Shown in pieces: positions 4,969 to 35,987 of a DNA stretch of 36,092 bases. Source of the stretch: a virus (Duplodnaviria > Caudoviricetes). The translations under genes and the position numbers were made by a program. The stretch covers positions 1 to 36,092 of the IMG/VR virus record IMGVR_UViG_3300020045_013107; one strand, 5' to 3'. Under the pieces are notes generated by a model. The model was not told the origin of the DNA. It made no database searches and was given only the letters and a program-made list of their open reading frames with translations. The stretch's first letter is position 1. Every line of letters starts with the position of its first letter.

Positions 4969-6390
4969 TTAAATTAATGATAATGCTTTTTCTTTGTTTA
5001 CTAATAATGAGCTTTTTTTCCGTTCTTCCATGAATAAAATTCCTTTTGATTTTAATTCTAAATTCATTCCATTAAATTCATTTTGAGTTATGAATAAATC
5101 TTTTATAGCTTTTCCCCTTGAAGGTATTTTATTATTATTACTATTATCATAAATATAATTAATATATTTTAAAATTAGGTCCCTTGATATCTTAGTCGTG
5201 TCTATCTCCTGTTTAAATCCAATAGTATTTTTACTTTTTATTCCTTCCGTTATTTCTTCATCATATGCTGTAAAGTCTGTATATCCTTTTACAAGATCCG
5301 CTTTTATTGTATCTTTTTTATTTTCAATATTAAAATCCGCAGTACATGTTGCTATATTTCCAGACGAATTAATATTTATGTCTTTGTTTTTTGAATTATT
5401 AAAAGTTTTAATATTACTTTTTACATTTTCCATTATTTCAGTAGATAATGTTATTTCTGGATTAACAATTTTTAAATAAATTGCTGCCGCTTCTGAAAAT
5501 AAACCAATAAAAACCAAAAACCATGTTATAAACTTTTTTAAATTGTTTTTGCCTACTATATCACTAATTGTTGAGCTATATCCTTTTGTGGTATCTATTT
5601 CATTTAAAATTGAATCTTTATTTATATTTGTATTGCTTTTTTCATTGCTGTCTGCTGCAATAATTTCTGTTATTTTATTAATACTTTCGTCTGAAATAGA
5701 ATTATCTTTTTTATTTACAATTTCGTCCTTAACTGTTTTGAATACATCATTATACTTTTTTACTTTATCTTCATATGAAAATTTAAATTTTAATTGATAT
5801 GATTTACTGCAATTATTTAGAATCTTTTGCTGTTCTTTTACTCTAGGATCTTTTAAAACAATATTATTTATTTCTGTTTCCGATAACTGTTTTTTATTGC
5901 TTTTTTTTGTTATAGTATCACTAAGAGTTTTTATCAAATTAGTTTTTGAAGCTTCATTATTTAATGTTGCTTCTTCTTTTTTTAATTCTATTTTATAACC
6001 TGAACTATTTAAAATTGATTCATTTTCGATTTTATTTGTCTGGTTCTTTAAATATGCCGTTGAAGCAAAAATTGACAATGAAAATGATGGAATAAAGAAT
6101 ATTATTGCAATAAATGCCTTTAATTTTTTCTTTCTCATTATAGAATTTATAGCAATTTTTGAAGTCCTTAATTCAAAAAATACAATAACATTTCCTATTA
6201 TTAACATAGCTGCCATTGAAAAGAAATTACTACTTGCAAGATCCAAAAATAACATACTTGAAAAAAATAAACTTACAAAAATCAAAAGACTTGACAATAT
6301 ATTCTGCTTTAATTTATCGATCCTATATTCCTCAAATCCCATTAAATCATTTACATAATTTACAAAAACGTTTTTAATCTTATCTTTCAT
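4969..6390 (-). CDS. Multi-pass membrane protein with coiled-coil region and C-terminal winged-helix-like domain
   Basis: Three N-terminal hydrophobic helices, a long K/N/E-rich region, a fourth TM (FITWFLVFIGLFSEAAAIYL) and a C-terminal helical segment (IPSRGKAIKDLFITQNEFNGMNLELKSKGIL). Start moved to ATG 6390 based on the RBS. Confidence 0.7.
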   Translation of the reverse strand: MKDKIKNVFVNYVNDLMGFEEYRIDKLKQNILSSLLIFVSLFFSSMLFLDLASSNFFSMAAMLIIGNVIVFFELRTSKIAINSIMRKKKLKAFIAIIFFIPSFSLSIFASTAYLKNQTNKIENESILNSSGYKIELKKEEATLNNEASKTNLIKTLSDTITKKSNKKQLSETEINNIVLKDPRVKEQQKILNNCSKSYQLKFKFSYEDKVKKYNDVFKTVKDEIVNKKDNSISDESINKITEIIAADSNEKSNTNINKDSILNEIDTTKGYSSTISDIVGKNNLKKFITWFLVFIGLFSEAAAIYLKIVNPEITLSTEIMENVKSNIKTFNNSKNKDININSSGNIATCTADFNIENKKDTIKADLVKGYTDFTAYDEEITEGIKSKNTIGFKQEIDTTKISRDLILKYINYIYDNSNNNKIPSRGKAIKDLFITQNEFNGMNLELKSKGILFMEERKKSSLLVNKEKALSLI

Positions 6391-6407
6391 AATCAAACCC
6401 AACCTCT

Positions 6408-6875
6408 CTATATTTTTTTTGATAAAGTAACTTTTACATATCCTTCTTTTTTGTCTGTCCATCTTTTAAACGTATGACTTTCAACAATGTATGAATCGTC
6501 TTTGTATGCCTTGCCATTGATACTATCTGTAATAATTTTTTCTATGTTATCAAAATCAGGTTTTTTTGTCGGATATATTTCATGCAGTAAACATTGATTT
6601 ATTTTCTTTTTGCTGTAACTATCAGGAATTTTAAAAAATGCTTCTATAGTAATATTAATAGGTCCTTCGATATAGTTGCCCTTAGATTGATAATACATTA
6701 TTTTTACTAAATTTTCATATAACACTGTTTTTTCTGGTGTATACGTTCCATTCCTTGTAACTCTCGCCCTTGCTTTTCCTGCTGGTTCTCCTGGGATTAT
6801 AAAACTAATCTTGTGATTTTCAGTAGTTTTTGCTTGTAGTTTTTTTATTTCTTTATTACAAAAATTACATTTCAT
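6408..6875 (-). CDS. rusA: RusA-family Holliday junction resolvase
   Basis: IPGEPAGKARAR, TYTPEKT and KKPDFDNIEKIITDSINGKAYKDDS. Start at ATG 6875 after GAAAGGGGT. Confidence 0.9.
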   Translation of the reverse strand: MKCNFCNKEIKKLQAKTTENHKISFIIPGEPAGKARARVTRNGTYTPEKTVLYENLVKIMYYQSKGNYIEGPINITIEAFFKIPDSYSKKKINQCLLHEIYPTKKPDFDNIEKIITDSINGKAYKDDSYIVESHTFKRWTDKKEGYVKVTLSKKI

Positions 6876-12167: not shown

Positions 12168-12231
12168 CCCATTTGCCCTTTGGGCATTTCCCATTTGCCC
12201 TTTGGGCATTTCCCATTTGCCCTTTGGGCAT
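12168..12231. repeat. Three tandem 22-bp iterons (origin A)
   Basis: CCCATTTGCCCTTTGGGCATTT x3 (third copy 20 bp), followed by AT-rich 12-bp repeats CAATAATATAAA. Confidence 0.85.
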
Positions 12232-12429: not shown

Positions 12430-12493
12430 TATAAATCTGGTTTTATAGTTGGTCACCAGCTATAACAGGCATGAAATATAAATCTGGTTTTAT
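12430..12493. repeat. 17-bp direct repeats flanking a near-palindrome
   Basis: TATAAATCTGGTTTTAT at 12430 and 12477; TATAGTTGG-tca-CCAGCTATA at 12444-12464. Confidence 0.7.
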
Positions 12494-12517
12494 TCCTGGT
12501 TTGTATGTCAATTAGTG

Positions 12518-12546
12518 TTTACAAATTACATACCAAATGGTATAAT
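12518..12546 (+). promoter_or_regulatory. Sigma-A promoter of the rightward operon
   Basis: TTTACA-N17-TATAAT with an extended -10; palindrome ATACCA-AA-TGGTAT overlaps it. Confidence 0.8.
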
Positions 12547-12571: not shown

Positions 12572-12838
12572 TTGAAAAAAATGAAATATATTAGGAAGAA
12601 TTTTAAATTTAACCCAACTAAAGATAGGAAAATATTAGATATATTAGAAAACCAAGGATATGGAGGACAAACCGACTGTATAAGGCTTTCAATAGATATA
12701 CTAGTTGTATTGTTTGGTGATAATGTAAATATTGACGAAATAAATAAACAGATAAAAATAAATGGTCTTATAAATGTAATAGATTCAAATATAAGAAACG
12801 TTAAAAATTTAAACCATATAGAGGTGATAAAAACATGA
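12572..12838 (+). CDS. Putative ribbon-helix-helix DNA-binding protein
   Basis: GGAGG RBS; alternating strand RKNFKFN followed by two helices (DRKILDILE, QTDCIRLSIDIL). Confidence 0.55.
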   Translation: MKKMKYIRKNFKFNPTKDRKILDILENQGYGGQTDCIRLSIDILVVLFGDNVNIDEINKQIKINGLINVIDSNIRNVKNLNHIEVIKT

Positions 12839-13200
12839 AGAATGAAATTGAACTTACAAAAAAAGAAAATTCAATAAGTAAAGAGAGGAATAATAATATT
12901 TTTAGTTGTCTATTGTGTAAATCAGATAATATTGTTATATCTAAAGATATTAGGATATTAGTAAATCCATGTGATTCTATAAATATTAACAAAGGTACTT
13001 TTAATAAAAAAACTACCAGAATATATTCAGTACTTGATAATGGTTATTTTTTAATTAAATGCAATGATTGCAAATTCGAAAAAGAAATAGACACAAAAAC
13101 CAATTATAATATAGCGGCAGGCAGTAATTCAAACAAAGAAAAGTTATACGAAAGTGTTCAAAATAACCCCAAAAATGGCACATATTTAAAAAACCGATAA
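12835..13200 (+). CDS. Hypothetical zinc-ribbon protein
   Basis: Two CxxC pairs (CLLC, CNDC); ATGA overlap with the previous gene. Confidence 0.7.
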   Translation: MKNEIELTKKENSISKERNNNIFSCLLCKSDNIVISKDIRILVNPCDSININKGTFNKKTTRIYSVLDNGYFLIKCNDCKFEKEIDTKTNYNIAAGSNSNKEKLYESVQNNPKNGTYLKNR

Positions 13201-13211
13201 CTAAAAAGGAG

Positions 13212-13685
13212 ATGAAAAAAATGTTGAGTCGAACTCATGTAAGTATTGGCATATTAACAGCACTAAGCTTTTTAATATTTAAAACAGATCAACCTATTAA
13301 TTTAAGGGAATTTATTCCGGGGGCGGTATTAGGATCAATAATTCCTGACATTGATACTGCTAGAAGTTGGGCGGCTCAAACAATACCATTTATTGATGAT
13401 CTTTTAAGAAAGTTGGGTGTATTATCGCATAGAGGATTGGCACACGGGAATGAAAAAATAATAGGAATATTCATTATTTCATCACTATTATATTGGATAT
13501 ACTTCAAGTATTACACTAATGATTTAATGTTAGGTTTAAGCATAGGGTATATAAGTCACATAATAGCAGACTACATTGCAAAACATATTAAATTAACTTG
13601 TAAAAAACATGATGGATGTATATTTAAATTAGCATGGATGATAAATATATTACTTTTAATAAAAATTAATAAGGGAGGTGTTTAA
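13212..13685 (+). CDS. Membrane-bound metal-dependent hydrolase (YdjM family)
   Basis: RTH, GSIIPDIDT, HRGLAH and GYISHIIAD motifs with TM segments. Confidence 0.88.
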   Translation: MKKMLSRTHVSIGILTALSFLIFKTDQPINLREFIPGAVLGSIIPDIDTARSWAAQTIPFIDDLLRKLGVLSHRGLAHGNEKIIGIFIISSLLYWIYFKYYTNDLMLGLSIGYISHIIADYIAKHIKLTCKKHDGCIFKLAWMINILLLIKINKGGV

Positions 13686-13686
13686 T

Positions 13687-13788
13687 GTGAGTGTAATTAT
13701 TATCTTAATAATGGTTAAATGGGCATTGATGATAAAAACATTGATGAATATGTTACTTATAATAAAAATTAATAAAGGAAGTATTTAA
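13687..13788 (+). CDS. 33-aa hydrophobic peptide created by a local tandem duplication (not in ORF track)
   Basis: GGAGGT RBS and GTG start: MSVIIILIMVKWALMIKTLMNMLLIIKINKGSI. Confidence 0.5.
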   Translation: MSVIIILIMVKWALMIKTLMNMLLIIKINKGSI

Positions 13789-13789
13789 T

Positions 13790-14749
13790 ATGTATGTAAT
13801 TGTTATTTTAATAATAGTTGGTTTGATAATTTTGTCATATATTTTAGATGGAATTATTAAATCCAAAAATAATTATAATGAAATAATATTTTGTTTATCT
13901 AATTTTGGTCTATACGATACTGATTTTAATAATAATCAAATAATTCATAATGACCCAGTAAATAAAAATAATGATTCTAAGTTTTTAGATTTAATAAAAA
14001 AAGTAGATACAAATAATTTTAAATTACCTTGGGTTGTTGGACTTGATACAAATGGCAATATAATATTAAAGGATATTTCGGAGGCACCACATATTTTAAT
14101 AGCTGGATGTACTGGATCCGGAAAATCAGTAGCATTAAACACATTAATCTGCAGTTTGATATTATCAACATCATCTGCAGATGTTGAATTAATTTTAATA
14201 GATCCCAAAATGATTGAGTTAAATTTTTATTCATCCATACCACACTTAAGAACAAACATAATAACAGAAATAAATGAAGCTTCTAGTATATTGGACACAA
14301 TAATTAAAGATATGAACAATAGATATAAATTATTAGCAGATGTAAAAGTTAAAAGTTTAGAAGCTTTGTATCAAAAAACTAAAATAAAATTAAAAAGGTT
14401 AGTCATTTGCTTTGATGAATTTGCAGATTTTACACTACAAGATAAAAGTATACAAAATAAAATTACTTTAATTGCTCAAAAATCAAGGGCTTGCGGTATA
14501 CATTTAGTAATAGCAACACAAAAACCAATTAAGGAAATAATTGATACTAAAATTAAAGCAAACATTCCTGTCGTTATTGCTTTAAGGACTACAAATAAAA
14601 ATGAATCAAGGGTTATATTAGACATGAACGGTTGCGAGATATTAAAAGGTAAAGGCGATATGCAAATAAAAGATATTAATGGAATGACTAGGGTACAAGG
14701 TTCATTTATATCAGATGATGATATCGAAAATATATGTAATAAATTCTAA
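13790..14749 (+). CDS. FtsK/SpoIIIE-family DNA translocase motor with a single N-terminal TM and no gamma domain
   Basis: PHILIAGCTGSGKS, LILIDPKMIEL, ICFDEFAD, RACGIHLVIATQKP, SRVILD..G.E.LKGKGDM and RVQGSFISD. Confidence 0.92.
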   Translation: MYVIVILIIVGLIILSYILDGIIKSKNNYNEIIFCLSNFGLYDTDFNNNQIIHNDPVNKNNDSKFLDLIKKVDTNNFKLPWVVGLDTNGNIILKDISEAPHILIAGCTGSGKSVALNTLICSLILSTSSADVELILIDPKMIELNFYSSIPHLRTNIITEINEASSILDTIIKDMNNRYKLLADVKVKSLEALYQKTKIKLKRLVICFDEFADFTLQDKSIQNKITLIAQKSRACGIHLVIATQKPIKEIIDTKIKANIPVVIALRTTNKNESRVILDMNGCEILKGKGDMQIKDINGMTRVQGSFISDDDIENICNKF

Positions 14750-14764
14750 ACAGGATGTGATAAT

Positions 14765-15139
14765 ATGAGTATTACAAATTTAGGCATACAAGGTGAAAAA
14801 AAAGCCCGTGAACTTATATTAAAAAAAATACGCCCCGAAATGTTAACACAGATTGATTGGCTTGCAAAAATTAAAAATAAATGGGTTTCTTTTGAGGTGA
14901 AAAATAAAGAACGTTTTAAAGCTCCACCATTTGACGGTCATGGTCTACCAGTAAAACAAAAAAATTATAGAATAGAATTATATAATGATACTGGTATACG
15001 ATGCGTTTTTCTAGTAATAGAACCTGATACTGATATTATTTATTACCAATGGCTTGATGTTCTTGAAAAAAACAAAAATTTTTTTGATACAAAACAAAAT
15101 ATCAGAATTTATAATATAACTGAATTTAAAAGGATGTGA
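14765..15139 (+). CDS. Putative PD-(D/E)XK nuclease
   Basis: G.QGEK.A helix, then IDWL and SFEVK motifs. Confidence 0.6.
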   Translation: MSITNLGIQGEKKARELILKKIRPEMLTQIDWLAKIKNKWVSFEVKNKERFKAPPFDGHGLPVKQKNYRIELYNDTGIRCVFLVIEPDTDIIYYQWLDVLEKNKNFFDTKQNIRIYNITEFKRM

Positions 15140-15143
15140 TGGA

Positions 15144-15596
15144 TTGTATATAAGAAAAGAAGCAATCAAAATATATTTATATAATATTGATTGCTTAATA
15201 GCAGAAATAGATTTATTAAAAAAAGAAATTGAAATATTTGAAAATGAAGAATATATTTTACATCCTTTAAAATCTTCTCAATTATCATACATGCCAAAAT
15301 CAGGAATTAATGGAGCATCACCAGTTGAATCATTTGCATTTAAACAAAACCAATATTTGCAAAGCTTAATTGATAAGGAATTACATTTAAGGGCTTTACA
15401 TATATCAATAAAAATTGTTTTAAATAGGTTGAAGCCTTTCGAAAAAGATGTATATGATTGTAGAAAAAATAATTTAACATATGAATCTATATCTGATGAA
15501 TTAAAAAAATCAGATAGATATATAAAAATAGTTTCAAAAAGAATAATAGATAATATTTATGATAATTACAAAGAATATTCAAAGGCTTTAACCTGA
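15144..15596 (+). CDS. RinA/ArpU-like late transcriptional activator
   Basis: SYMPKSG...SPVE motif and C-terminal sigma-r4-like HTH (TYESISDELKKSDRYI). Confidence 0.7.
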   Translation: MYIRKEAIKIYLYNIDCLIAEIDLLKKEIEIFENEEYILHPLKSSQLSYMPKSGINGASPVESFAFKQNQYLQSLIDKELHLRALHISIKIVLNRLKPFEKDVYDCRKNNLTYESISDELKKSDRYIKIVSKRIIDNIYDNYKEYSKALT

Positions 15597-15622
15597 AAAA
15601 CATATTAGGAGGTTAACGCATA

Positions 15623-15925
15623 ATGTCAATATATAATATAATTTATAATAGGATAATAGTTGATATTAAAAGATCTAAAATCTTGTTAAATAAATTAGCT
15701 AATAGTAGAAAAAATAATACTAATAAAATACTAAAAATAAGAGAAAATATATTAAATAAACAAGCTTTGTTACTATTCATTGAAAATATAAATACTCAGG
15801 AAGATTATTTATTAAATATGGACACTGGTAACAAATACTATATAAATACAGATAATGAAAGTGATGATAATTTACTTGATTTCATAGTAAAAGAAGTTAT
15901 AACCGTATTAAGCGCAGTAAATTAA
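15623..15925 (+). CDS. Hypothetical protein
   Basis: AGGAGG RBS, 100 aa. Confidence 0.7.
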   Translation: MSIYNIIYNRIIVDIKRSKILLNKLANSRKNNTNKILKIRENILNKQALLLFIENINTQEDYLLNMDTGNKYYINTDNESDDNLLDFIVKEVITVLSAVN

Positions 15926-15992
15926 TTAAAAGCAGTATGTATTGTATAATGTGGTCATATCAAAGCAACATACAAATACATACTGCTTTTAA
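15926..15992. terminator. Long inverted repeat between convergent operons (bidirectional terminator)
   Basis: 18-bp perfect arms TTAAAAGCAGTATGTATT / AATACATACTGCTTTTAA. Confidence 0.7.
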
Positions 15993-18831: not shown

Positions 18832-21570
18832 TTATATAGTCGCCCCCAAACTTCTAAATTTACTATTATTATCATTGTATTGATATCTCGATGTATTTTC
18901 AGAAACTTTTCTACCATCGAGATTTATAATATTTTCTATTATTATTTCTTTGGTTACTTGTTGAACTTCTGCATTCCTAAAATTGTCTATAGTTGAATTA
19001 TTAGGAGTTCCAATCATAGACATAGATTCTTTGTTTGGAATAACCTGCGCCCCATAAGGTAATTTTACGATTTCGGGACCTTCTTCACCAACAAGGGTAA
19101 ACGGTTCCCTAACTATACCACCTGTTGCCATACCTGGTACAAATTCACCGACTTTACTTGGAATGCTTCCAATTTTACTAATTAAACTACTAATATTATC
19201 TTTTAAACTGTTAGCCCATCCGGCAACACTATCAAATATACTTTTTAAACCATTTAATTTGCTTGTAATAGTTGATACCATGCTTGAAATAGCAGTCGCT
19301 ACCCCAGACTTTAATGAATTAAAGGCATTTATAGCTGTTGATTTGATACTATTTACTATATTTGTGATTGAGCTTTTTATACTATTCCATATGCTTGTAA
19401 CTGTTGATTTAATAGAAGTAAAAACACTTGATACTGTTGATTTAATGCTATTAAATACACTTGATACTGTTGATTTTATAGAATTTATTATAGTTGTTAT
19501 ATTTGTTTTTATATTGTTCCATGTATTACTGGCAACTGTTTTTATTTCATTAAAAACTGTAGTAACTGTTGTCTTTATATTATTTAATTTTTCTGAAATG
19601 CTAGTTTTTATACTGGTCCATATTTCGATAATTTTACTTTTAATATTTGTTACAACTTCAATTGCTTTATCTTTTGCACTGGTCCATATTTCAACAATTT
19701 TATCTTTTATATTAGTTACCAACCCGATAGCTTTATCTTTCATATCTGTAAATAATTTAATTATTGCGTTGACCATGTCGGGAATAATTGAATGACCAAC
19801 AAGGGTATCATATAAGCCTTGAAATACTGTTATTACACCAGTGCCAAAACCCTTAACAAAATTTACAACAATCATTATTGTATTTTCAAATATACTTTTT
19901 ATAGCTTCCCATAAGTTAGTTACTGATTCTAATATTTTGCTGCCGTCGCCAGAAAAAACCCCAATTATCAATCCCATTACACTCGCGAATACTGTATATA
20001 AACTGTATATATTACTATAAACATTTGGAATTACAGATATAATACCATTTAATAAACCGACCACAAGACTAAAGGCAGTAACCAATATCCCCCCGATTAA
20101 TACGCCAAGAGCTTCAATTGCTGGCTGTAAAGGCTTTAAAGCTTCTATAAATTTACTATAACTTTCTAATATAATTGAAAAGTCTAGTTTTGAAAATGTT
20201 TCTTTAAACATTTCGCCAACTGGACGTAATATTTCCCCTAGTGCAATTAATCCATTTCTAAGTTTTTCATAAAAACCGACTACTAGTTCTATACCTCCAC
20301 TTAATTCAGGAGGTAACATACTTTTGAACTTTTCTTTGATAGTGTCGAAGTCGCCCGTCACAAATAAATCAACTAAAGTTTTAAATTTAGAAGTAAATGT
20401 ATTTATCTTTTCAATTAATACTGGAATGTTTGAACTGAACCAATTCGCAAATGTATTTAAAACTGGTAAAATCTTTTCACCTAAAGGAATTAATAACGCC
20501 ACTTCTAATTGTCTCCCTATACCTGTCAACGCTTCACCAAACGAATCATATTTTATATTATTTATCTCATCCATTGTATTTTTTGACATGTCGGCTTTAT
20601 CTGTAATATTGACAATTGCACTAATACCTTTTGTTTCCAAATCTTCGTACATCGTCCCCCACAAGGCAACCCCGATTTGATTTCTTTTTACTGGATCTTC
20701 GGTTTTCAATAATGCTTCATTTACTTTCATAAAAGAATCATGAGCGGTTTTTCCACCCTTAGCAAAATCGGAAGTCATTTTTTCGGCATTAAATCCTAGC
20801 TCTTTAAAGGCTTCCATGCTTGCTTTGCTTCCATCTTTGGACCTGATGGTAAATTCTTTCATGGCATCGCCAACTTTGTCAATTGAAAATGCTCCACCTT
20901 CGGCACCACTAATTAACGTATCTGTAAATTCATTTGCAGTGAATCCCATTGCGGAAAATTGCGGGGAATATTCATTTAATATATCCAGTAAATCGCCGTT
21001 TTTGTTTGCGCCATTTTGCGCCCCTTGTGCTATTAAATTATAAGCTTCGTTAGATGTTATACCAAATTGAGAAACCATTGAACTAGCTGCTTTGACACTT
21101 TCGGTAACATCCATTTCAAAGGCATCTCGTAATATTAAAGCGTTTTTAGTTGTGTTTGTTATATCTTTTTCTGTTTGAATACCTAAAGCTTCACTTTGTT
21201 GTTTTACAATTGCCATGCTTTTAGCTATATCATCAAAAGATTCGCCAAAATTTTGACCATATAATTCAAGCATTCCATCTTTTAATTTTGACATTTCTTG
21301 ATCTGTGCTACCTGTTTGAGTTTGTAACGTATTTAAGGACTTTTTTAAATCATCCGCTGCCATTACTGCCTTTACACCAATTGCAATTGCTGCTGCCGCT
21401 GCCGCTGCTCCAACTGCGACAATTGCAGTTCCTGCGACGGCTGCCAAACTGGATAATTTGCTAAATGAACCGCCTAACCCTTGAGCGTTTGTATTTGTTT
21501 CATTAATGTTATCATTTGCATCTTCATTTTCAACAAATATATTCCCAACCAATCTAAACAGTTCCACCAA
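18832..21570 (-). CDS. Tail tape measure protein
   Basis: 912 aa with a TMP core (DKVGDAMKEF), 11/22-aa W/F-spaced repeats and C-terminal ATGG...VGEEGPE. Confidence 0.93.
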   Translation of the reverse strand: MVELFRLVGNIFVENEDANDNINETNTNAQGLGGSFSKLSSLAAVAGTAIVAVGAAAAAAAIAIGVKAVMAADDLKKSLNTLQTQTGSTDQEMSKLKDGMLELYGQNFGESFDDIAKSMAIVKQQSEALGIQTEKDITNTTKNALILRDAFEMDVTESVKAASSMVSQFGITSNEAYNLIAQGAQNGANKNGDLLDILNEYSPQFSAMGFTANEFTDTLISGAEGGAFSIDKVGDAMKEFTIRSKDGSKASMEAFKELGFNAEKMTSDFAKGGKTAHDSFMKVNEALLKTEDPVKRNQIGVALWGTMYEDLETKGISAIVNITDKADMSKNTMDEINNIKYDSFGEALTGIGRQLEVALLIPLGEKILPVLNTFANWFSSNIPVLIEKINTFTSKFKTLVDLFVTGDFDTIKEKFKSMLPPELSGGIELVVGFYEKLRNGLIALGEILRPVGEMFKETFSKLDFSIILESYSKFIEALKPLQPAIEALGVLIGGILVTAFSLVVGLLNGIISVIPNVYSNIYSLYTVFASVMGLIIGVFSGDGSKILESVTNLWEAIKSIFENTIMIVVNFVKGFGTGVITVFQGLYDTLVGHSIIPDMVNAIIKLFTDMKDKAIGLVTNIKDKIVEIWTSAKDKAIEVVTNIKSKIIEIWTSIKTSISEKLNNIKTTVTTVFNEIKTVASNTWNNIKTNITTIINSIKSTVSSVFNSIKSTVSSVFTSIKSTVTSIWNSIKSSITNIVNSIKSTAINAFNSLKSGVATAISSMVSTITSKLNGLKSIFDSVAGWANSLKDNISSLISKIGSIPSKVGEFVPGMATGGIVREPFTLVGEEGPEIVKLPYGAQVIPNKESMSMIGTPNNSTIDNFRNAEVQQVTKEIIIENIINLDGRKVSENTSRYQYNDNNSKFRSLGATI

Positions 21571-25304: not shown

Positions 25305-28025
25305 TTAATAATTGTTTGATGTAAAACTTATGTTTTTACTATTTGATAAAAATGTTTTTATTGGAATAAATTTTTCAACATTTAATGAAATGTTATATAT
25401 TGCTAAAATTACAGGAATTATATTTACAAATATAATTATGTCTGTATTAATTGATAGGTCCTTTATTTCACATGAAATATTAATTATATTTTGAGATATA
25501 TTTACACTAGTACTCATTAATATTTCATTGATACATACAAATATATTTATGATTTCTATTGAAAGTATACTATTCGCATGTATTACGCTATTATTAATAT
25601 TACTATCTATATTAATTACATCTATATTTATATTTGTTTCTGTTAAAAGTTCGCAATTAATTATTGAAACTAAACAATTTGTTCTTGGCATTCCTATAAT
25701 TGTTATTATTTCAAGTGAAGAATTATTAATATTACAATCAGTATTATTTAATGGGATATTCATAAAACTATTTGCAATTAACAAACAATCATTAATGTTA
25801 GCATCTACATCAATTACATCAATAGACATATTAACAACAACTATCAATGTTATATCTTTAATATCAATAGATACTTCTATTATGTTTATTAAAATATTGC
25901 AATTTATTATAATGCTCAAATTTTCAATATTAATATTACCATCAATTGATGGTATATCTATTATTGAATTTGTTTGTATTCCATTAATTAATATTGACGT
26001 ATTTATATTAATTAATGGAATTGATATTTCTACATTTGTTGTTATTTCTGTATTCCTTAATATTGTATTAACATTAATAGTTTGTAAACTTACAATATTA
26101 ACTGATGAATTAAGGGTAATATCATCAAAGCTAAGAGATGTATTAATTATTGGTATATTGATAACATAATCGTTTTTAAAGCTTATACTATAAGTTTCTA
26201 TCGTTACATTGATAACATTTATAGAAGCATAGTAATTAATAGATACTTCTGGATTATTTATTAATATCGATACATCCACAATATCAATATTAATATTTGC
26301 TTCGGTTATTATTGAACTATCTAAAATATCTATACTAGCATTTAAAACTGGAATAGCAATAAAAACATAAATAAATGTTTTTACTTCTGGAATATATGTA
26401 TTTAATGCAATATCAATAAATGGAATATTTACTATTTTTGGTATTGATATTGCATTGCTAATAATATTAATATTACAATTATTAACTGGAATTAATAAAC
26501 TATTATTGGTAATTAATTCAACATTGTTAATATTTACTGCAGAATTAACTAAAACTATATCAATATTAACGCCTGATGAAATACTATTACTATTAATAAT
26601 TGTACTTATATTTATTAAATCAACTAAAGCTTCAACATCTATATTTAAGTTAGTTTCATTAACTACAATGCCTATATTTATTAATGGTATTGATAAAATA
26701 CTATTGGTTGCAATACTTGAGTTTCCAATACTTACATCTGCATTGTTTACTAGTGCTGAAATATTTATTGAAGTAATTATTGATAAATTAATAATGGTTA
26801 CTTCAATATTTGTAATTGGTATAGTTATAATACTATTTGTTTCTATCTCCGAATTACTAATTACACATGATATATCATTAACGGGTATTGTCACAATTGA
26901 TTTTGTTATAATTCCAGGATTATTAATTAATAATCCTGGAATTATAACTGGACCTAAAATATTAACAGATCCAGTTATGTTCAAATTATAAAGACTAATT
27001 TCAACATCAATTAATGGTGTGTTTATTATTTTTGGTAATGATACAATTGAATTATTAATAATTATGGAAATATTAGTGAGTAGTATTCCGATATTGGCTT
27101 CTGTAATTATTGAAAGATTTATGATTGATAAGTCAATATTTATTGATGGCACGTCTATATTTACGCTTGTTTCAATGCTACTATTTAAAATTGTTGTATC
27201 AATATTTATAACTTGTATTGAATTATTAATATTAATAATTACATCTGTATTACTAATTGCAATACTACAATCAGTCAATGGAATGTCAATATCAAACCCA
27301 ATAGCAATAATTGAATTATCAATTGATGTACTTATATTTATAACAGGTATTGTTATAATATTGTTTGTTTCTATACCGCCATCATTAACCAATGTACTTA
27401 TATCTGTCTTTTGAATATTCGCATTACACCCAATAGCAATAATTGAATTATTAACCGCAGTATTGCAATTAATTAATGGTACTGCAATATTTTTTGATAT
27501 AGTATATGTTATTACTAATTTAGGCCTTTGTGAAGATGTCGCATGATCTGACGTACTAGCATTAAATCCTTTAAATTGGTTTGTTGTTGATGCTGAAAAT
27601 CCATAATTTACATAAGTTTCATCACATAAAGATTGAACTAATGAAGTAATATCAAAATCTTTATTTCCTGTAAAGGAACCAGCAATTGATATTGATCCGT
27701 GTTTTGTTGCATTAATTGTTGGTTTACTATTCCAAGTAACCGTTGATTCTGTCCAATCACTTGTAATTCTATTGATTCCGTATGTATCGGTGGCACTAGT
27801 ATAAGTTATATATAAACTTAATATTGCACTTGTTATTGCTGCACCATATATTGATGATAAATCAAATTGTAATAATGGATACTTATTAAGGTCGAAGTAT
27901 CCATCCGGACCTTGATAACTAAGTTGCATTTCGTTACTAGTTCCGTAATTAGTTGTTTTTGCCGCTTCATTTACCCAACTATCCTTGCCTGCTGTTCCGT
28001 CTGGTTGTAAAGTTAAACTAGCCAT
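25305..28025 (-). CDS. Long fibre-like protein: N-terminal DNRLRE-like beta-sandwich plus Ile/Asn-rich ~21-aa repeats
   Basis: LTLQP...GKDSWV...TNYG...LLQFDLS...ITSAILSLY...WTESTVTWN..P...RPKLVITY, then about 700 aa of 21-aa periodic repeats. Confidence 0.75.
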   Translation of the reverse strand: MASLTLQPDGTAGKDSWVNEAAKTTNYGTSNEMQLSYQGPDGYFDLNKYPLLQFDLSSIYGAAITSAILSLYITYTSATDTYGINRITSDWTESTVTWNSKPTINATKHGSISIAGSFTGNKDFDITSLVQSLCDETYVNYGFSASTTNQFKGFNASTSDHATSSQRPKLVITYTISKNIAVPLINCNTAVNNSIIAIGCNANIQKTDISTLVNDGGIETNNIITIPVINISTSIDNSIIAIGFDIDIPLTDCSIAISNTDVIININNSIQVINIDTTILNSSIETSVNIDVPSINIDLSIINLSIITEANIGILLTNISIIINNSIVSLPKIINTPLIDVEISLYNLNITGSVNILGPVIIPGLLINNPGIITKSIVTIPVNDISCVISNSEIETNSIITIPITNIEVTIINLSIITSINISALVNNADVSIGNSSIATNSILSIPLINIGIVVNETNLNIDVEALVDLINISTIINSNSISSGVNIDIVLVNSAVNINNVELITNNSLLIPVNNCNINIISNAISIPKIVNIPFIDIALNTYIPEVKTFIYVFIAIPVLNASIDILDSSIITEANINIDIVDVSILINNPEVSINYYASINVINVTIETYSISFKNDYVINIPIINTSLSFDDITLNSSVNIVSLQTINVNTILRNTEITTNVEISIPLININTSILINGIQTNSIIDIPSIDGNINIENLSIIINCNILINIIEVSIDIKDITLIVVVNMSIDVIDVDANINDCLLIANSFMNIPLNNTDCNINNSSLEIITIIGMPRTNCLVSIINCELLTETNINIDVINIDSNINNSVIHANSILSIEIINIFVCINEILMSTSVNISQNIINISCEIKDLSINTDIIIFVNIIPVILAIYNISLNVEKFIPIKTFLSNSKNISFTSNNY

Positions 28026-28055
28026 AATTTAAACGCCACCTTTCCGTGATGGTGT

Positions 28056-28493
28056 TTATGCGACGGCTGGAACTGTAAATGTAATTATTCCGCTTGCATT
28101 ATATGTCAATGTAAAGTCACCATCTGAACTAGATTTATTTTCCACAAAATCAATATATCCTATTAATGGGCTTGTTGAATCTGTTCCGGTACTTTTATAT
28201 ATAACCGCATATCTAGCAGTTATAGTTGAATTTGACCAAGTTGTATTCGCTGCATCTAATGTTGTCACATTGCTGGCAACTGTATCTGTTTTACTTCCTA
28301 ACGTTGCACCACCTGCTGTATATCCTGTCCCTGTAACTTCATTATCAACGTCGCTTTTATAACCATGTGTGTTTTGTGCTGGTGTATATGAAGAAGTGCA
28401 AAGCATGACTTTAATTGTATCATCTGCGAAATCAATTTCGGCCCTCATTGCTTTTTGTGGAAAAGTTGAATATAAATAACTAGTTACTGCCAT
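28056..28493 (-). CDS. Virion structural protein (fibre-associated)
   Basis: IDF..DTIKVML, EVTGTGYTAGG.TL, ITARYAVIY and LIGYIDF. Start at ATG 28493. Confidence 0.7.
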   Translation of the reverse strand: MAVTSYLYSTFPQKAMRAEIDFADDTIKVMLCTSSYTPAQNTHGYKSDVDNEVTGTGYTAGGATLGSKTDTVASNVTTLDAANTTWSNSTITARYAVIYKSTGTDSTSPLIGYIDFVENKSSSDGDFTLTYNASGIITFTVPAVA

Positions 28494-28516
28494 GATAAAA
28501 CCCACCTTTCAATATT

Positions 28517-28548
28517 TAAAAGTACCATAAAGTTTTATGGTACTTTTA
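28517..28548 (-). terminator. Inverted repeat / terminator
   Basis: TAAAAGTACCATAAA-gt-TTTATGGTACTTTTA. Confidence 0.65.
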
Positions 28549-28572
28549 TATTAATTATATTTGTTTATTTTT

Positions 28573-29769
28573 TTAATAAGCCGTTCCCAACGAAATTCTT
28601 CGCCAATTTTTACCCGTTGAATCGTTTGTTGCAATACAAAGGTAAAAATATCCTGTATCAACTTTTGATTGCCATTGAGTCCCCACTGTTCCGTCAACGC
28701 CGCCTGTTAATGTTCCATGTGCAAACGTAGCATTTGCCATTGTTTCAGTTGTTGAAATGCTATTTCCCACAATACCATTTACATCAAAGGTAATATCAAC
28801 AACGTCATTTGTGCCGTCTACCGCTGAATAAGTACCGTCACCGCTATTTGTGATTGCTGCAACTATAGCTGTGACTGCATTTGCTGCTGTGCAATCGGCT
28901 CCGGCTGTTGTAACTCCGATTGCTTCGGTAAATATGTTTGTTCCTTCTGTAAATGTTTCTGTACTTGCAATATTGTTTCCTGCTGTTCCACCAATCAAGG
29001 CAGTAATAACACTATTATTATTGCTAAAAGCCGCTGCACTAACTTGGGTATGTGCTAAATTGTAACCATCACTTCCGTTTATTGCTGCAACAATATTTGT
29101 TTTTGCTGTTGCTAGTCCTGTACCTATTGATATTTCCCCGTTGGCGTTTGCTGTCCCATTAGGAACAAATGTAAATGTTTTAGACCCTAATGTCATTGTA
29201 TCGCCTGCTGTTGGTTGTGTATCAACTGTTAATGTACCCTGTGCTTTTGTAGCATATGAGGTGATGTCAATCGCTATTTTGCCACTTGCAACACTTTGTG
29301 CTGTATCTGCTGCAAATTCATAATCATCTGTTCCTATGGTTATTAATTCCCCATCAATAACAACTCCTGTTAATGTCAATGCACCCGTTGCCGCTGCTGC
29401 ATTTACTGGTGTTCCATTAACAAATGTCATGTTTTGAAGTGCTGTGTTTGCTAATCCTAAACTAGCAATAACCGCTGCCGTCATGTCTGTTGATGGTATT
29501 CCTTCCGCCGGCTTTGTATATTTTGCGCCTGCTGCACTTACTGCTGAGTCTGCGTGTGAATCTATTTCATTTAAAGCCCCAACTATAGAATTTTTTTCTG
29601 TAGTTGTAAGGGTTGCCAAACTTCCAATTTTAACATCTGTTGCAAGTTTCGCATTTGTAACTGCGCCATTTTCAAGACCAAAACTAGAAAAATACGATAA
29701 TAATTCATCATAAAAATCGCCAAATGAATTTGGTTGAGGTCTATTATTAAAACTAGTTGGTAATGCCAT
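28573..29769 (-). CDS. Head decoration / head fibre protein
   Basis: Directly after the capsid gene; A/T/G-rich, with a GAVTNAKLA fibre motif and C-terminal YFYLCIATN...WRR. Confidence 0.65.
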   Translation of the reverse strand: MALPTSFNNRPQPNSFGDFYDELLSYFSSFGLENGAVTNAKLATDVKIGSLATLTTTEKNSIVGALNEIDSHADSAVSAAGAKYTKPAEGIPSTDMTAAVIASLGLANTALQNMTFVNGTPVNAAAATGALTLTGVVIDGELITIGTDDYEFAADTAQSVASGKIAIDITSYATKAQGTLTVDTQPTAGDTMTLGSKTFTFVPNGTANANGEISIGTGLATAKTNIVAAINGSDGYNLAHTQVSAAAFSNNNSVITALIGGTAGNNIASTETFTEGTNIFTEAIGVTTAGADCTAANAVTAIVAAITNSGDGTYSAVDGTNDVVDITFDVNGIVGNSISTTETMANATFAHGTLTGGVDGTVGTQWQSKVDTGYFYLCIATNDSTGKNWRRISLGTAY

Positions 29770-31644: not shown

Positions 31645-32079
31645 TTAATTATTTTTTTTATATTGTTCCATCAATTTAAAGAAATTTACTTTCAAATCCT
31701 TTTTATATTCTTTTTCATATTCGCCATTTTTGTCAATGCTTGTATAATATAAATTACCTTTTCTTATTTCAAAGATAAAAGCAGTATTTGAAGCATTTTC
31801 AATCATTGTTATTTTTTCTTTGTTGTAATTTGAAATTTCTAGCTTAAAATTATTTATTTCTTTTGTTTCTTTTGTATAGGCTGCAATATCTGCTGTATTA
31901 TTTTCTAAGTCTATATTAAGTAAATTCAATGTTGTTTCACCATCTGAAATGTAACATCCATTTAAATTATTATCTTTAGTAATAAAAAAAATAGTTGAGG
32001 CTATTACTACTGCAGTAATTATTACAATTATTAAGACATTAACTTTTTTACCAAATATCACAAAATACCCTTCTTTCAA
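31645..32079 (-). CDS. Membrane-anchored / exported hypothetical protein
   Basis: N-terminal TM (VLIIVIITAVVIASTIFFI). Confidence 0.6.
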   Translation of the reverse strand: MKEGYFVIFGKKVNVLIIVIITAVVIASTIFFITKDNNLNGCYISDGETTLNLLNIDLENNTADIAAYTKETKEINNFKLEISNYNKEKITMIENASNTAFIFEIRKGNLYYTSIDKNGEYEKEYKKDLKVNFFKLMEQYKKNN

Positions 32080-32124
32080 GTTTGCTTTTAATCTCTAATT
32101 ATACAAAATAAATCTTTTGTATAA

Positions 32125-32673
32125 TTAAATCACCTTTATTTTATCGTTTCTTGTATTATATTCAAGCTCATAAGACAAAGTCAACATATTTTCAATATTA
32201 AGATCTATAATGTAGAAACTTTTTTCTATTTCCTGATTATTTTCTTTATATATTTCAAAATAATAATTAGCTAATTGGAAATTATTTAAGTTTTCTATTA
32301 TTTCATTTAATACAGTTTTATGTATATGTAAAAATTTGTCTTTGTTTTGACCTTCTTTTATAATTCCAACATTTTCAAAATCGACATAAAATTCTTTTTC
32401 ATCTTCTGATAATTTTATTTTTTGATTGTTTTTAACTTGAAATACATCCTTTTTATAATTAAAATAATCTACTGTATTCTTATTTTTAAAATAAATAGAA
32501 TATCTTTCAGTTTCGATATCTTCTACTTTCTTTTTTATTTCCCTTACTGTTATTTCAATATGTGCTGTTTTAAATTTTATTATTTTCCCAGTAATTTCAG
32601 TATATATATCTTCTTCCAATAATAACGCTTTACCTTTTAGACTTCCTTTATCTATAATTCCTAATTGAACCAC
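32125..32673 (-). CDS. Hypothetical protein
   Basis: GAGGTG RBS, GTG start, 182 aa. Confidence 0.7.
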   Translation of the reverse strand: MVQLGIIDKGSLKGKALLLEEDIYTEITGKIIKFKTAHIEITVREIKKKVEDIETERYSIYFKNKNTVDYFNYKKDVFQVKNNQKIKLSEDEKEFYVDFENVGIIKEGQNKDKFLHIHKTVLNEIIENLNNFQLANYYFEIYKENNQEIEKSFYIIDLNIENMLTLSYELEYNTRNDKIKVI

Positions 32674-32724
32674 ATTAACACCTCATAACATGTTTATAAC
32701 TTCCTAACTATAATATGCATATGA

Positions 32725-32934
32725 TTATTTATTTCCTTTGCTTGTCTTGGTATCTTCTACTGTAGCAATTGCAGCAACTTCTTCAATTATAAATGTAACA
32801 TTATTAATAGAATCATACCATAGCTTTTTGTATGATCTTATTTTTGCAAAAAAATCCTTTGCATTTAATTTTGAATCTTCTTCATTTGCAACAATGTCAA
32901 TAACTGCTCCACCTTTTAAATATATCTTAAACAT
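32725..32934 (-). CDS. Hypothetical protein
   Basis: AAAGGGG RBS. Confidence 0.7.
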   Translation of the reverse strand: MFKIYLKGGAVIDIVANEEDSKLNAKDFFAKIRSYKKLWYDSINNVTFIIEEVAAIATVEDTKTSKGNK

Positions 32935-32970
32935 TTTGTTGTATCCCCTTTCTTTGAAATATTTTAACCT

Positions 32971-33177
32971 TTAATTTCTTTTCTTTATGCCTAATGTAAT
33001 AACTTTTCCATCTGGTTGCCTTAATTGAAATAACATCATTTGTATTTTGTTTTCAATTAATTGTTTTAATGCTTCCGGATCTGCTTCTAATGTAATATCA
33101 ATGTTGATTCCATTATTTTCCTTTTTACTAGTCATTACTGCGGACATTGTCGGGGCTTCAATTTCACAATTTTTCAT
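32971..33177 (-). CDS. Hypothetical protein
   Basis: AAGGAG RBS. Confidence 0.7.
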   Translation of the reverse strand: MKNCEIEAPTMSAVMTSKKENNGINIDITLEADPEALKQLIENKIQMMLFQLRQPDGKVITLGIKKRN

Positions 33178-33189
33178 TTTTAGATCTCC

Positions 33190-33414
33190 TTAAATATAGT
33201 TTTTTATATTTTCCTCATTTATTGGAAATAAATTATTTTTTGACCTAATTAAATTAAGACTTTTAATATCAATGTCAAACCTTTTTATTTTGTGATCCCA
33301 TTTTGATATATCATTATATTTAATGCAACATTCTTCACTACATAAAAAATGATTTGTACTTTTTGTTTCTTTTATTTCTTCAAATTCTTTATCGCATATT
33401 ATACAGTTAACCAT
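33190..33414 (-). CDS. Small zinc-finger protein (TRASH/MYM-like)
   Basis: CIICDKEF...FLCSEEC. Confidence 0.65.
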   Translation of the reverse strand: MVNCIICDKEFEEIKETKSTNHFLCSEECCIKYNDISKWDHKIKRFDIDIKSLNLIRSKNNLFPINEENIKNYI

Positions 33415-33417
33415 GAA

Positions 33418-34092
33418 TTAACCCGCCTTTTTAACATCTTCTTTTATTGTTATTTCTATATGTGTAACTGTTTTACCTTTTTTATATTCCTTTACTTCTA
33501 ACATAAATCTAGTATTATGATTAACTTCTGGAATAGCTTTATTTAGTACTTTTTGATTTATATTTTTTATTTGATAAGTATTTGGAATATTGAAATATTT
33601 TTTAAATGTATCTAATTTCATTTTTATTTTTCCTGAATATCTACAGGCGAACTCATACATTCTGATACTGTAATCTGATTTCATAGAATATAATTCATCT
33701 AGAATTATTTTACTGAACTTTCCATCATCAATATTAAAATATTTTAAAGCTTCTTCATTGAAATTGAAAATTATTTCTTTTTCCTTATCATCAATTACAT
33801 ACTTAGTAAACATTGAAATACTAATTATTTTACCATTGCTTTTAAATGTTATTTCTTTAGGTATCTTTAGTATTATCATTATCATTTCGTTAAAGGTTTT
33901 ATTACCTTTAAATACATTTTTCATTTGTGAGTAATTAACAACTACACTTGAATTGATTTCACTTCCAATTTGTTTTAATGCCTTTTCCCTTAATGCTGTG
34001 TAAAATATAAACTTTGCACTTTTGGGCATCTCCATTTTCGGCATATCAATAACCTCATTTCTTATTAGAAATTCAGTATCCACATTATCCAC
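33418..34092 (-). CDS. Plasmid-type replication initiator (Rep_3/RepB family)
   Basis: LIRNEVI, FNEEALKYF, MKSDYSIRMYE, FKKYFNIPNTY, NQKVLNKAIPEVN and KKGKTVTHI, matching the two winged-helix Rep_3 pattern. Confidence 0.88.
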   Translation of the reverse strand: MDNVDTEFLIRNEVIDMPKMEMPKSAKFIFYTALREKALKQIGSEINSSVVVNYSQMKNVFKGNKTFNEMIMIILKIPKEITFKSNGKIISISMFTKYVIDDKEKEIIFNFNEEALKYFNIDDGKFSKIILDELYSMKSDYSIRMYEFACRYSGKIKMKLDTFKKYFNIPNTYQIKNINQKVLNKAIPEVNHNTRFMLEVKEYKKGKTVTHIEITIKEDVKKAG

Positions 34093-34119
34093 ATTATCAA
34101 CACCTTTCTATTATCTACA
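34076..34119 (+). promoter_or_regulatory. Cluster of DnaA boxes
   Basis: GTATCCACA, TTATCCACA (perfect) and TTATCAACA in tandem at 34076-34102, plus TTATCTACA at 34111. Confidence 0.75.
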
Positions 34120-34271
34120 TTATATCATAAGGTAACATTTTATTTAAAAAGTTTTTTTATAAGTTTTTATAAAGATAAAAGCAAGATTATTTTTTGTCTA
34201 TATCTTATCTTATAATCTTTTATCTTATACAAAACCACCAATGATAGTAATGATAATAGATGTATGGTTCT

Positions 34272-34313
34272 ATCGGTAACCAAAAAGGGAGCCATCGGTA
34301 ACCAAAAAGGGAG
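34272..34313. repeat. Iterons of the Rep_3 origin (origin B)
   Basis: ATCGGTAACCAAAAAGGGAG x2 at a 22-bp period, next to an AT-rich tract. Confidence 0.75.
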
Positions 34314-34378
34314 TGACTTTTTAAAAATTAAACAATATAAAATGTTGTAATCGTTAGTATTACTACATCACAACCCTG

Positions 34379-34556
34379 TGCCGAAAGGGCAAATGATACG
34401 AATAAAGAAGTACAACGTTTTTTTTATACATAAATACACTTCAACCCTTTTAATAGTACCATTTGCCCTTTCGGCATAGCCTATTAAATATTAATTATTA
34501 AAATTTGTTTTTTGCTTATATTACTGCATTATAGCCCTGTGCCTTTTGGGCAAATG
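34379..34556. repeat. Three dispersed CATTTGCCC-N4-GGCA sites in alternating orientation
   Basis: 34379-34395 (-), 34460-34476 (+) and 34540-34556 (-), spaced 81 and 80 bp. Confidence 0.8.
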
Positions 34557-34566
34557 GTATAAATAG

Positions 34567-34592
34567 TAAAGGACGTATTTAAACGTCCTTTA
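34567..34592 (-). terminator. Hairpin downstream of the minor head gene
   Basis: TAAAGGACGT-atttaa-ACGTCCTTTA. Confidence 0.55.
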
Positions 34593-34657
34593 TAATTAAA
34601 AAAATATTAGTAGGTAAATTGTTTTTATGGTAAAATTTATATTAATTTAAAAATATT

Positions 34658-35458: not shown

Positions 35459-35546
35459 GTAACCCACCAACATTTTTATATTTATTGTAATTTGCATGTA
35501 CTGATATAAATTCGTTATGTCCAGCCTCAATAAAAATATTATTCAT
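35451..35546 (-). pseudogene. Relic of an N-acetylmuramoyl-L-alanine amidase (Amidase_3) endolysin
   Basis: MNNIFIEAGHN-EFISVHANYNKYKNVGGLHG*: the IxIDAGH and FISxHAN zinc-ligand motifs are fused; lies directly after the holin-like genes. Confidence 0.75.
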
Positions 35547-35703
35547 TTTTATTTCCCCCATTTGGATTTATATATCCAGCAACATATCCCAAGACAGTCA
35601 AGACTATTGTTATAACTGTGTTCTCGCTTATTTTATCCAAGCACGCCATCACTGCAATTGCAATTATACATATACCAAAAATTATAGATTGTGCTTTAGT
35701 CAT
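35539..35703 (-). CDS. Putative holin, 2 TM, 54 aa (not in ORF track)
   Basis: GGAGG RBS and ATGA overlap: MTKAQSIIFGICIIAIAVMACLDKISENTVITIVLTVLGYVAGYINPNGGNKNE. Confidence 0.7.
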   Translation of the reverse strand: MTKAQSIIFGICIIAIAVMACLDKISENTVITIVLTVLGYVAGYINPNGGNKNE

Positions 35704-35987
35704 CTTGTACCTCCAGAAGCTATAAAAAATATTAAGTATCCAGCACTAGACAATATTAAAAATAAAATTGATACCAAATTAGTTATCAATAAATTATTAA
35801 ATTTACCCATTTTGCTATCTAAAGATTCAACTTTTTTTTCAATATTTATTATACTATTACCTTGTAACTCTGTTTTAGTGCCAATTATTCGCAAATTTTC
35901 CTCCACTTTATCTATTCTTGATTCAAATTTTTTAAGTTTTTCATCAAGAAAATTAATTCGATCCGTTTTGTTACATTCATGTTCCAT
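35700..35987 (-). CDS. XhlA-like lysis-cassette membrane protein
   Basis: Coiled coil (RIDKVEE...IINIEKKVESL) plus a C-terminal TM; GGAGG RBS. Confidence 0.72.
   Translation of the reverse strand: MEHECNKTDRINFLDEKLKKFESRIDKVEENLRIIGTKTELQGNSIINIEKKVESLDSKMGKFNNLLITNLVSILFLILSSAGYLIFFIASGGTR

Follow-up and report, generated by a model that had tools for sequence, protein, structure and literature searches.

Many phages carry FtsK-like genes of unshown function, and phage-plasmids that lack Par proteins need a means of inheritance. FtsK operons have already been described in phages (PMC3357382, PMC11526630): in these reports a 'DNA translocation operon', combining an FtsK-like or coupling ATPase with a Replic_Relax protein, is assigned to 0305phi8-36, SPO1, Gamma/Wbeta-like phages, Page, DLc1 and RBClin15, and in the last of these it sits beside parABS (PMC11526630). 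In Streptomyces, the FtsK-like motor TraB works with SpdB2, a DNA-binding protein with four transmembrane segments (TMs) (PMC4447253), and SpdA2 together with palindromic sites is reported to aid the stability of plasmid pIJ101 (PMC4170104). In this study we focus on the IMG/VR virus record IMGVR_UViG_3300020045_013107 (36,092 nt, hereafter the window), and in it on two genes: that of a 319-aa FtsK-like ATPase (13790..14749, plus strand), found in a divergent operon at 12572-15925, and that of a multi-TM winged-helix protein (4969..6462, minus strand). On the favoured reading, this set is a variant form of the phage DNA translocation operon, which is known but unexplained. The initial annotation had taken it for an undescribed membrane DNA-pumping module; a membrane DNA-handling role is still the best reading, but with phage FtsK operons on record in PMC3357382 and PMC11526630 the set can no longer be called undescribed. 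Moreover, the genome and its sisters point to a recurring partner that had been overlooked, the multi-TM winged-helix protein, encoded behind a ribbon-helix-helix (RHH)-like gene.

As in the described phage operons, the ATPase gene of the window is immediately followed by a PD-(D/E)XK-type gene, and the pair belongs to an accessory region close to the tail/lysis end, in a phage of Firmicutes type; according to these reports the operon is non-essential or untested in the phages concerned. In contrast to them, the downstream gene is not Replic_Relax, the ATPase falls outside their clade, and the block is divergent. The source phage is a siphophage of 36 kb and 28% GC whose record has a 121-nt terminal repeat and is therefore a circular assembly; its completeness is put at 66% by CheckV. 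It encodes virion proteins (SPP1-type portal, terminase, capsid and tail), two holin-like open reading frames (ORFs), and a replication set comprising a primase-helicase, an O/DnaD-like initiator and a plasmid-type Rep_3 initiator (33418..34092, minus strand, with Rep3_N/C Pfam matches). The host would be a low-GC Gram-positive bacterium, and Rep_3 suggests that the phage lives as a plasmid-like prophage. No tyrosine or serine recombinase was found in the window, and none of the 49 window ORFs scanned matched ParA, ParM, a CI-type repressor or an endolysin, in agreement with the earlier observation that the genome has neither integrase nor ParA/ParM.

The multi-TM winged-helix protein (473-497 aa) comprises three N-terminal TMs, a long soluble segment, a fourth TM and a C-terminal winged-helix-like domain (residues ~432-476). 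Five distinct phages were compared, the window, G001, G003, G045 and G052, three of which were reached via ydjM or chosen as sisters, so that they are not a random sample. A counterpart of the protein is present in all four comparison phages, hence in 5/5, against three of the five for FtsK and three of the five for YdjM. Judged by sequence, the steady part of the set is the multi-TM winged-helix gene, which in the window lies outside the operon. The YdjM subfamily search returned three viral records, G001, G002 (a fragment like G003) and G003, all of them with this gene. In G003 (complete, 56.9 kb), the gene of a 387-aa four-TM protein overlaps ydjM, and 6.6 kb away is encoded a 658-aa two-TM FtsK ending in a related winged helix; the phage carries an amidase and has no integrase match. 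In G001 (55.9 kb, linear), a 437-aa multi-TM protein and YdjM are encoded in one divergent operon, and an amidase is present as well. Scans with the capsid and portal proteins led to two long records, G045 and G052, the close structural sisters in which this region is sequenced (portal identity 55-56%), and both have a divergent operon at the window's position in which an RHH-like gene is followed by the multi-TM winged-helix gene. The G045 operon, located between the replication genes and an amidase, encodes in turn the RHH-like protein, the multi-TM protein, small TM proteins, a 451-aa two-TM FtsK and a 152-aa ORF; YdjM and the nuclease are absent from it. In G052, the second gene encodes a 454-aa four-TM protein that matches the window protein modestly over most of its length in pairwise alignment, and a Rep_3 homologue is also present.

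The relationship of the C-terminal domains was assessed with leave-one-out profiles of six of them, ranked against 11,860 background frames. The held-out domain came first in five cases (window, E 1e-7; G003 FtsK, 2e-5; G003 TM protein, 1e-4; G001, 0.011; G045 TM protein, 0.16), and the G052 protein, which lay outside the profile, scored E 6.5e-9. The window winged helix thus scored resembles the C-terminus of the TraB-like FtsK of G003. Pfam matches on these C-terminal domains were to winged-helix families, below the cut-off. A word search for the four-TM protein returned no homologue, its Atlas look-alikes are unnamed and mostly viral clusters, and no Pfam or Atlas family ties it to Spd proteins.

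The ATPase is built of one N-terminal TM, a low-confidence linker and a beta (RecA-like) domain only. It matches FtsK (PF01580, E 3.5e-44), its top Foldseek match is 6t8b (E 5.5e-20), and its alignment to solved FtsK begins at residue 71, that is with the beta domain alone; 74 residues, TM included, precede this domain, and the linker of the predicted structure has a predicted local distance difference test score (pLDDT) below 50. Neither the alpha domain (PF17854) nor the gamma domain gave a Pfam match in the ATPase or its two closest orthologues, and the protein stops at beta. Its beta domain is 37-46% identical to those of FtsK/SpoIIIE, with the same fold and with the catalytic and DNA-contact basic residues kept; unlike them, the window protein has no alpha, no gamma, a single TM where they have a multi-TM domain, and TQKP for TQRP. 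Lacking alpha and gamma, it therefore falls outside the canonical FtsK/SpoIIIE translocases. The catalytic residues are intact: K112 (Walker A), D209/E210 (Walker B) and R233 (arginine finger). In Pseudomonas aeruginosa FtsK, R620 serves as arginine finger and R632, K643, K657 and R661 hold the DNA, with alpha forming the exit ring (PMC7321959); the window equivalents of the five residues are R233, K245, K256, K270 and R274. All four DNA-contact basic residues are thus present in the window, and the orthologues keep those of loop II, which are invariant, but not those of loop I. At 58-60% identity, the orthologues share the truncated architecture and the catalytic residues (four sequences). 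In a tree of 39 rows, the window ATPase groups with three orthologues in a single clade (100/100) that is separate from both the gamma-bearing set and the Bacillus-phage FtsKs. A scan of viral contigs with the window FtsK returned no close relative, and the FtsK alignment, used as a query, led to two distant loci from which the other operon genes are absent. The description of the ATPase as having intact Walker motifs, one TM and no gamma was correct, although the missing alpha domain had escaped notice. From its residues, the protein appears to be a conserved, incomplete motor that is likely active. As a naturally minimal motor, it would test the need of the FtsK alpha domain for DNA pumping. 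Stand-alone soluble beta-only FtsK genes occur in unrelated phages (L003 6002-6838; L179 1438-2232).

We favour, with a probability of about 0.4, a reading in which a membrane tether and a stripped motor help to segregate the plasmid-like prophage. The window has a circular genome with Rep_3 and without integrase or ParA/ParM, its ATPase is a one-TM, beta-only protein, and the multi-TM winged-helix gene occurs in five phages. In the proposed mechanism, the RHH-like gene would regulate the operon. The winged-helix protein would tether phage DNA to the membrane and give in trans the DNA-recognition domain that TraB and FtsK carry in cis. The ATPase would form a membrane-anchored ring and pull double-stranded DNA clear of, or across, the closing septum, and prophage DNA held and moved at the membrane in this way could be inherited by the daughter cells. 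This scheme draws in part on an analogy with TraB and the four-TM DNA-binding SpdB2 (PMC4447253). A rather doubtful generalization of it is that non-integrating low-GC phages partition their plasmid-like prophages without ParA/ParM by a split FtsK/TraB machine, with a membrane winged-helix tether and an alpha-less, beta-only ATPase ring that might load at the six GC-rich palindromes described below.

Several observations weigh against segregation by tether and motor. Every characterised FtsK motor ring includes the alpha domain, as described in PMC7321959, and the window ATPase lacks it. The position of R661 is N, N and K in three orthologues, against R in 19/20 gamma-bearing FtsKs. The ATPase and winged-helix genes of the window are 7 kb apart and in different operons, and the window FtsK does not group in the tree with the FtsKs of G003 or G045, both long, unresolved branches, so that the motor has likely been swapped. 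Neither G001 nor G052, both of which have the winged-helix protein, yielded an FtsK (these records are incomplete, and 31 kb of G052 are available), and neither did any of the portal relatives searched, 23 among the 26 given from a total of 80 and for the most part distant or fragments; FtsK was found in one of five capsid relatives searched (of 11). Soluble beta-only FtsKs stand alone in the unrelated phages L003 and G006. In the profile test, the held-out G045 ORF that follows FtsK ranked only ninth, and the G045 TM protein came first at a poor E value. Finally, Pathria et al. report that deletion of the FtsK-like operon of phage 0305phi8-36 had no effect on growth (PMC3357382).

A possible, if doubtful, alternative is that the operon is an accessory patchwork without joint function, in which the beta-only ATPase either would act on its own, for instance in recombination or in handling DNA in the lytic cycle, or would be the remnant of a fuller module like that of G045. 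The co-occurrence of its genes bears on this directly. Nuclease family loci numbered 151 (71 viral and the best 80 of 175 metagenomic ones, duplicates included), with at least 1 kb of upstream sequence in 126. The other operon genes were near the nuclease in none of them save L007, in which FtsK lies ~8 kb off on the opposite strand; a terminase was near in 23/151. Among whole records, taken as the 38 longest of the 71 viral nuclease records, FtsK was above cut-off in 1/38 (1/9 of those with a completeness of 90% or more), and no YdjM reached it. The general co-occurrence of YdjM, FtsK and nuclease that the initial annotation had envisaged is thus not found, and the six genes are rejected as a conserved unit, since the nuclease family travels without FtsK and YdjM. 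Locally, a link may exist: the longest contig measures 8,745 nt for an FtsK orthologue as well as for a nuclease of 70% identity, so that the two are likely neighbours, and a longest contig of 38,765 nt common to a YdjM and a nuclease of 59% identity favours a local link as well. By gene content, which differs among all five phages compared, the operon presents itself as a mosaic accessory block instead of a conserved set of six genes. Passengers are probably the nuclease, the Zn-ribbon protein, the regulator and the product of the last ORF, and YdjM is a frequent companion.

Besides the unlinked nuclease and the variable gene content, the stand-alone beta-only FtsKs of other phages speak for a patchwork, as does a scar just before ftsK: the end of ydjM and the start of ftsK carry a tandem duplication (13639..13819, plus strand; 78-nt copies, 85% identical, 103 nt apart), which creates a hydrophobic ORF of 33-36 aa (13678-13788). 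The endolysin is also missing, at a CheckV estimate of 66%. Against such a patchwork speak the catalytic and loop II residues, which do not vary among the four sequences despite an identity of 58-60%, the retention of the TM anchor, and the recurrence of the RHH-like and multi-TM winged-helix pair in both sisters.

It is unlikely that the set is a minimal TraB/Spd-like system for virion-free passage of double-stranded phage DNA from one cell to another on contact. By architecture, the FtsK-like motor, four-TM DNA-binding partner and small TM proteins of the Streptomyces TraB/Spd set resemble the present one, and SpdB2 homologues have been reported on some actinophages (PMC4447253); in the Streptomyces set, a DNA-binding protein and palindromic sites affect plasmid stability (PMC4170104), and the window has palindromes. 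G003 FtsK has the TraB-like layout of two TMs, motor and C-terminal winged helix, and one of the small TM genes of G045 is weakly TcpD-like (E 0.02). Furthermore, YdjM of the window matches Clostridium perfringens plasmid proteins (27% identity, E 5e-4) encoded between tcpH and tcpJ, which is the position of tcpI (PMC3506638); the tcp locus of pCW3, with its FtsK-like coupling protein TcpA and TcpI, likewise brings an FtsK-like ATPase and a YdjM-type gene together in one mobile element. The identity to the pCW3 proteins is 25-27% only, however, and relaxase, VirB4, the TcpH channel and the hydrolase have no counterpart in the window, where more generally no wall hydrolase or channel genes were found. 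Unlike TraB, the window motor has one TM and no winged helix of its own, and it belongs to a low-GC phage and not an actinomycete plasmid. In addition, the relatives keep holin and amidase, and a full virion gene set is present.

An ATPase and nuclease pair expressed by the prophage for anti-phage defence or superinfection exclusion, the alternative offered by the initial annotation, seems quite unlikely. The two genes are adjacent under a strong vegetative-type promoter, their homologues are likely neighbours on the 8,745-nt contig, and the PADLOC models SspH and MAD8 match the ATPase domain. These matches cover only a generic FtsK domain, as present in systems that are far larger or consist of several genes, none was obtained for the nuclease, and no PADLOC nuclease-ATPase defence system had its full component set in the window. 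Defence is thus poorly supported, since most members of the nuclease family show no linkage to the ATPase: FtsK is present in 1/38 records, ~8 kb off on the other strand, and a terminase is near in 23/151 loci. A module whose dedicated role is to pump DNA of the phage into forespores is very unlikely, for, despite the SpoIIIE analogy and the virospores with phage-acquired segregation genes described in PMC12991052, nothing found points to spores: the promoter is sigma-A-like (no scan was made for forespore-sigma promoters), and the only exact 0A box, at 20343, lies within the tape-measure gene.

In the initial annotation, a DNA-pumping module was said to fit the loss of the endolysin. No Amidase_3 was found in the window, but FtsK and amidase occur together in G003 and G045, and in the five Bacillus phages viewed the FtsK and replication-relaxation-type genes have an endolysin beside them in 5/5; an integrase is also present in 3/5 of these phages. 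Lysin loss is thus unlinked to FtsK, as related phages keep an amidase beside it, and the proposed link is rejected. The statement that the operon replaces the lysogeny module remains true as one of position and not beyond. The two holin-like genes of the window lie between the portal and minor-head genes (35539-35987), with no recognisable endolysin in the genome, and in the sister fragment L205 an amidase lies just before the small terminase. No integrase-family match was obtained in G000, G001 or G003, and the only recombinase of G045 is a tyrosine recombinase of 199 aa, encoded next to the terminase. In the sisters, the terminase is directly preceded by short tyrosine-recombinase-like genes (185-199 aa), one or two per phage (L201 3947-4543 and 5513-6097; L204 7488-8042; L199 1286-1882); the window has none.

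As first annotated, the operon is real and is the sole plus-strand block of the window, and the GC skew agrees, being clearly positive at 12-16 kb only. Its seven ORFs (12572-12838, 12835-13200, 13212-13685, 13790-14749, 14765-15139, 15144-15596 and 15623-15925) are each preceded by a purine-rich stretch resembling a ribosome-binding site; six had been named, and the seventh, together with the small hydrophobic ORF before ftsK, had been overlooked. The near-consensus promoter also held up: a sigma-70/sigma-A type site (12518..12546, plus strand; TTTACA-17-TATAAT with TG) agrees with the consensus at 11/12 positions, in a genome with 56 promoter-like sites against 49.3 +/- 5.5 in shuffles, a total near chance. 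A leftward 12/12 site at 12132-12104 faces away from it. The palindrome ATACCAAATGGTAT (12530-12543) overlaps the -10 of the rightward site and is a possible candidate operator, and two TATAAATCTGGTTTTAT copies upstream of the rightward promoter (12430-12500) are further possible operators. Between the converging operons, a perfect 18-nt inverted repeat (15926..15992) is a possible terminator.

The palindrome CATTTGCCC-N4-GGCA is present in six copies in the window genome, against 0.02 expected, as three tandem copies upstream of the leftward promoter (12170..12230) and three more upstream of rep_3 (34379..34556). It is absent from G001, G003 and G045 and is rejected as a conserved cis site. 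Nor are these palindromes the Rep_3 iterons, since other repeats match those of G052: two 20-nt iteron-like repeats lie by rep_3 at 34272 and 34294, and similar repeats of 22 nt precede the Rep_3 homologue of that sister, which has four of them. The palindromes are likeliest to be putative initiator binding sites because three other GC-rich palindromes of G052 sit within its initiator gene, with operators or tether sites as alternatives. With one half of the copies at the early leftward promoter and the other half before rep_3, they may couple the two replication modes. Rep_3 itself, with five small ORFs, is inserted between the minor-head and scaffold genes (31645-34600).

Most labels given to the other operon genes stand in part. 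The 88-aa first gene (12572..12838) is RHH-like by pattern and position and shows weak similarity to the genes that open this operon in G045 and G052 (the held-out window protein ranks second, E 0.23, and both sister proteins first), with no Pfam RHH or PDB match; a likeness to pSK41 ParR is unconfirmed by any PDB match. The 121-aa product of 12835..13200 is a possible Zn ribbon with two CxxC pairs and a weak Pfam match (Zn_ribbon_Elf1, E 0.07), and a relative is absent from all loci tested. The YdjM label (13212..13685) is well founded: this putative metal-dependent hydrolase matches PF04307 (E 5e-18, 65.6 bits against a cut-off of 29) and belongs to a small subfamily in which H9, D46, D48, H73, R74 and H78 are invariant in 13 aligned sequences; the genome-collection scan with its alignment returned distant, mostly cyanobacterial YdjMs only.

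The small putative PD-(D/E)XK-type nuclease (124 aa, 14765..15139) belongs to a widespread phage family, usually unlinked to FtsK. Its label agrees with the invariance of E11, D31, E44 and K46 in 47 aligned homologues (of 56 found), while its fold is named by no Pfam or PDB match and its single-sequence structure prediction has a pLDDT of 45; a scan of viral contigs returned no close relative. Identity with RecU is rejected (1/47 members matched, E 0.009), and so is identity with Replic_Relax, at an hhalign probability of 0.4% against a profile of five Replic_Relax proteins; PF13814 gave no Pfam match for this gene adjoining FtsK. The 150-aa protein of 15144..15596, possibly RinA/ArpU-like, is regulator-like by PHROG 36 (E 8e-5) and sigma70-ECF (E 0.015), the RinA label as such being weak, and the 100-aa ORF at 15623..15925 has no family match in library scans. 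Literature searches, none of them aimed at the winged-helix partner, returned no beta-only phage FtsK with a YdjM or multi-TM winged-helix partner.

Elsewhere in these genomes, G001 has before its terminase a sugar-modification-like block with a Maf-type transferase and aminotransferase-like and epimerase-like ORFs (L168 14399-18084, L169 3609-9578). Between the capsid and the head-tail connectors, the window (25305-29769) has large genes for two proteins, one of 906 aa that begins with a CBM96 domain and one of 398 aa, and the sisters also have long insertions at this place.

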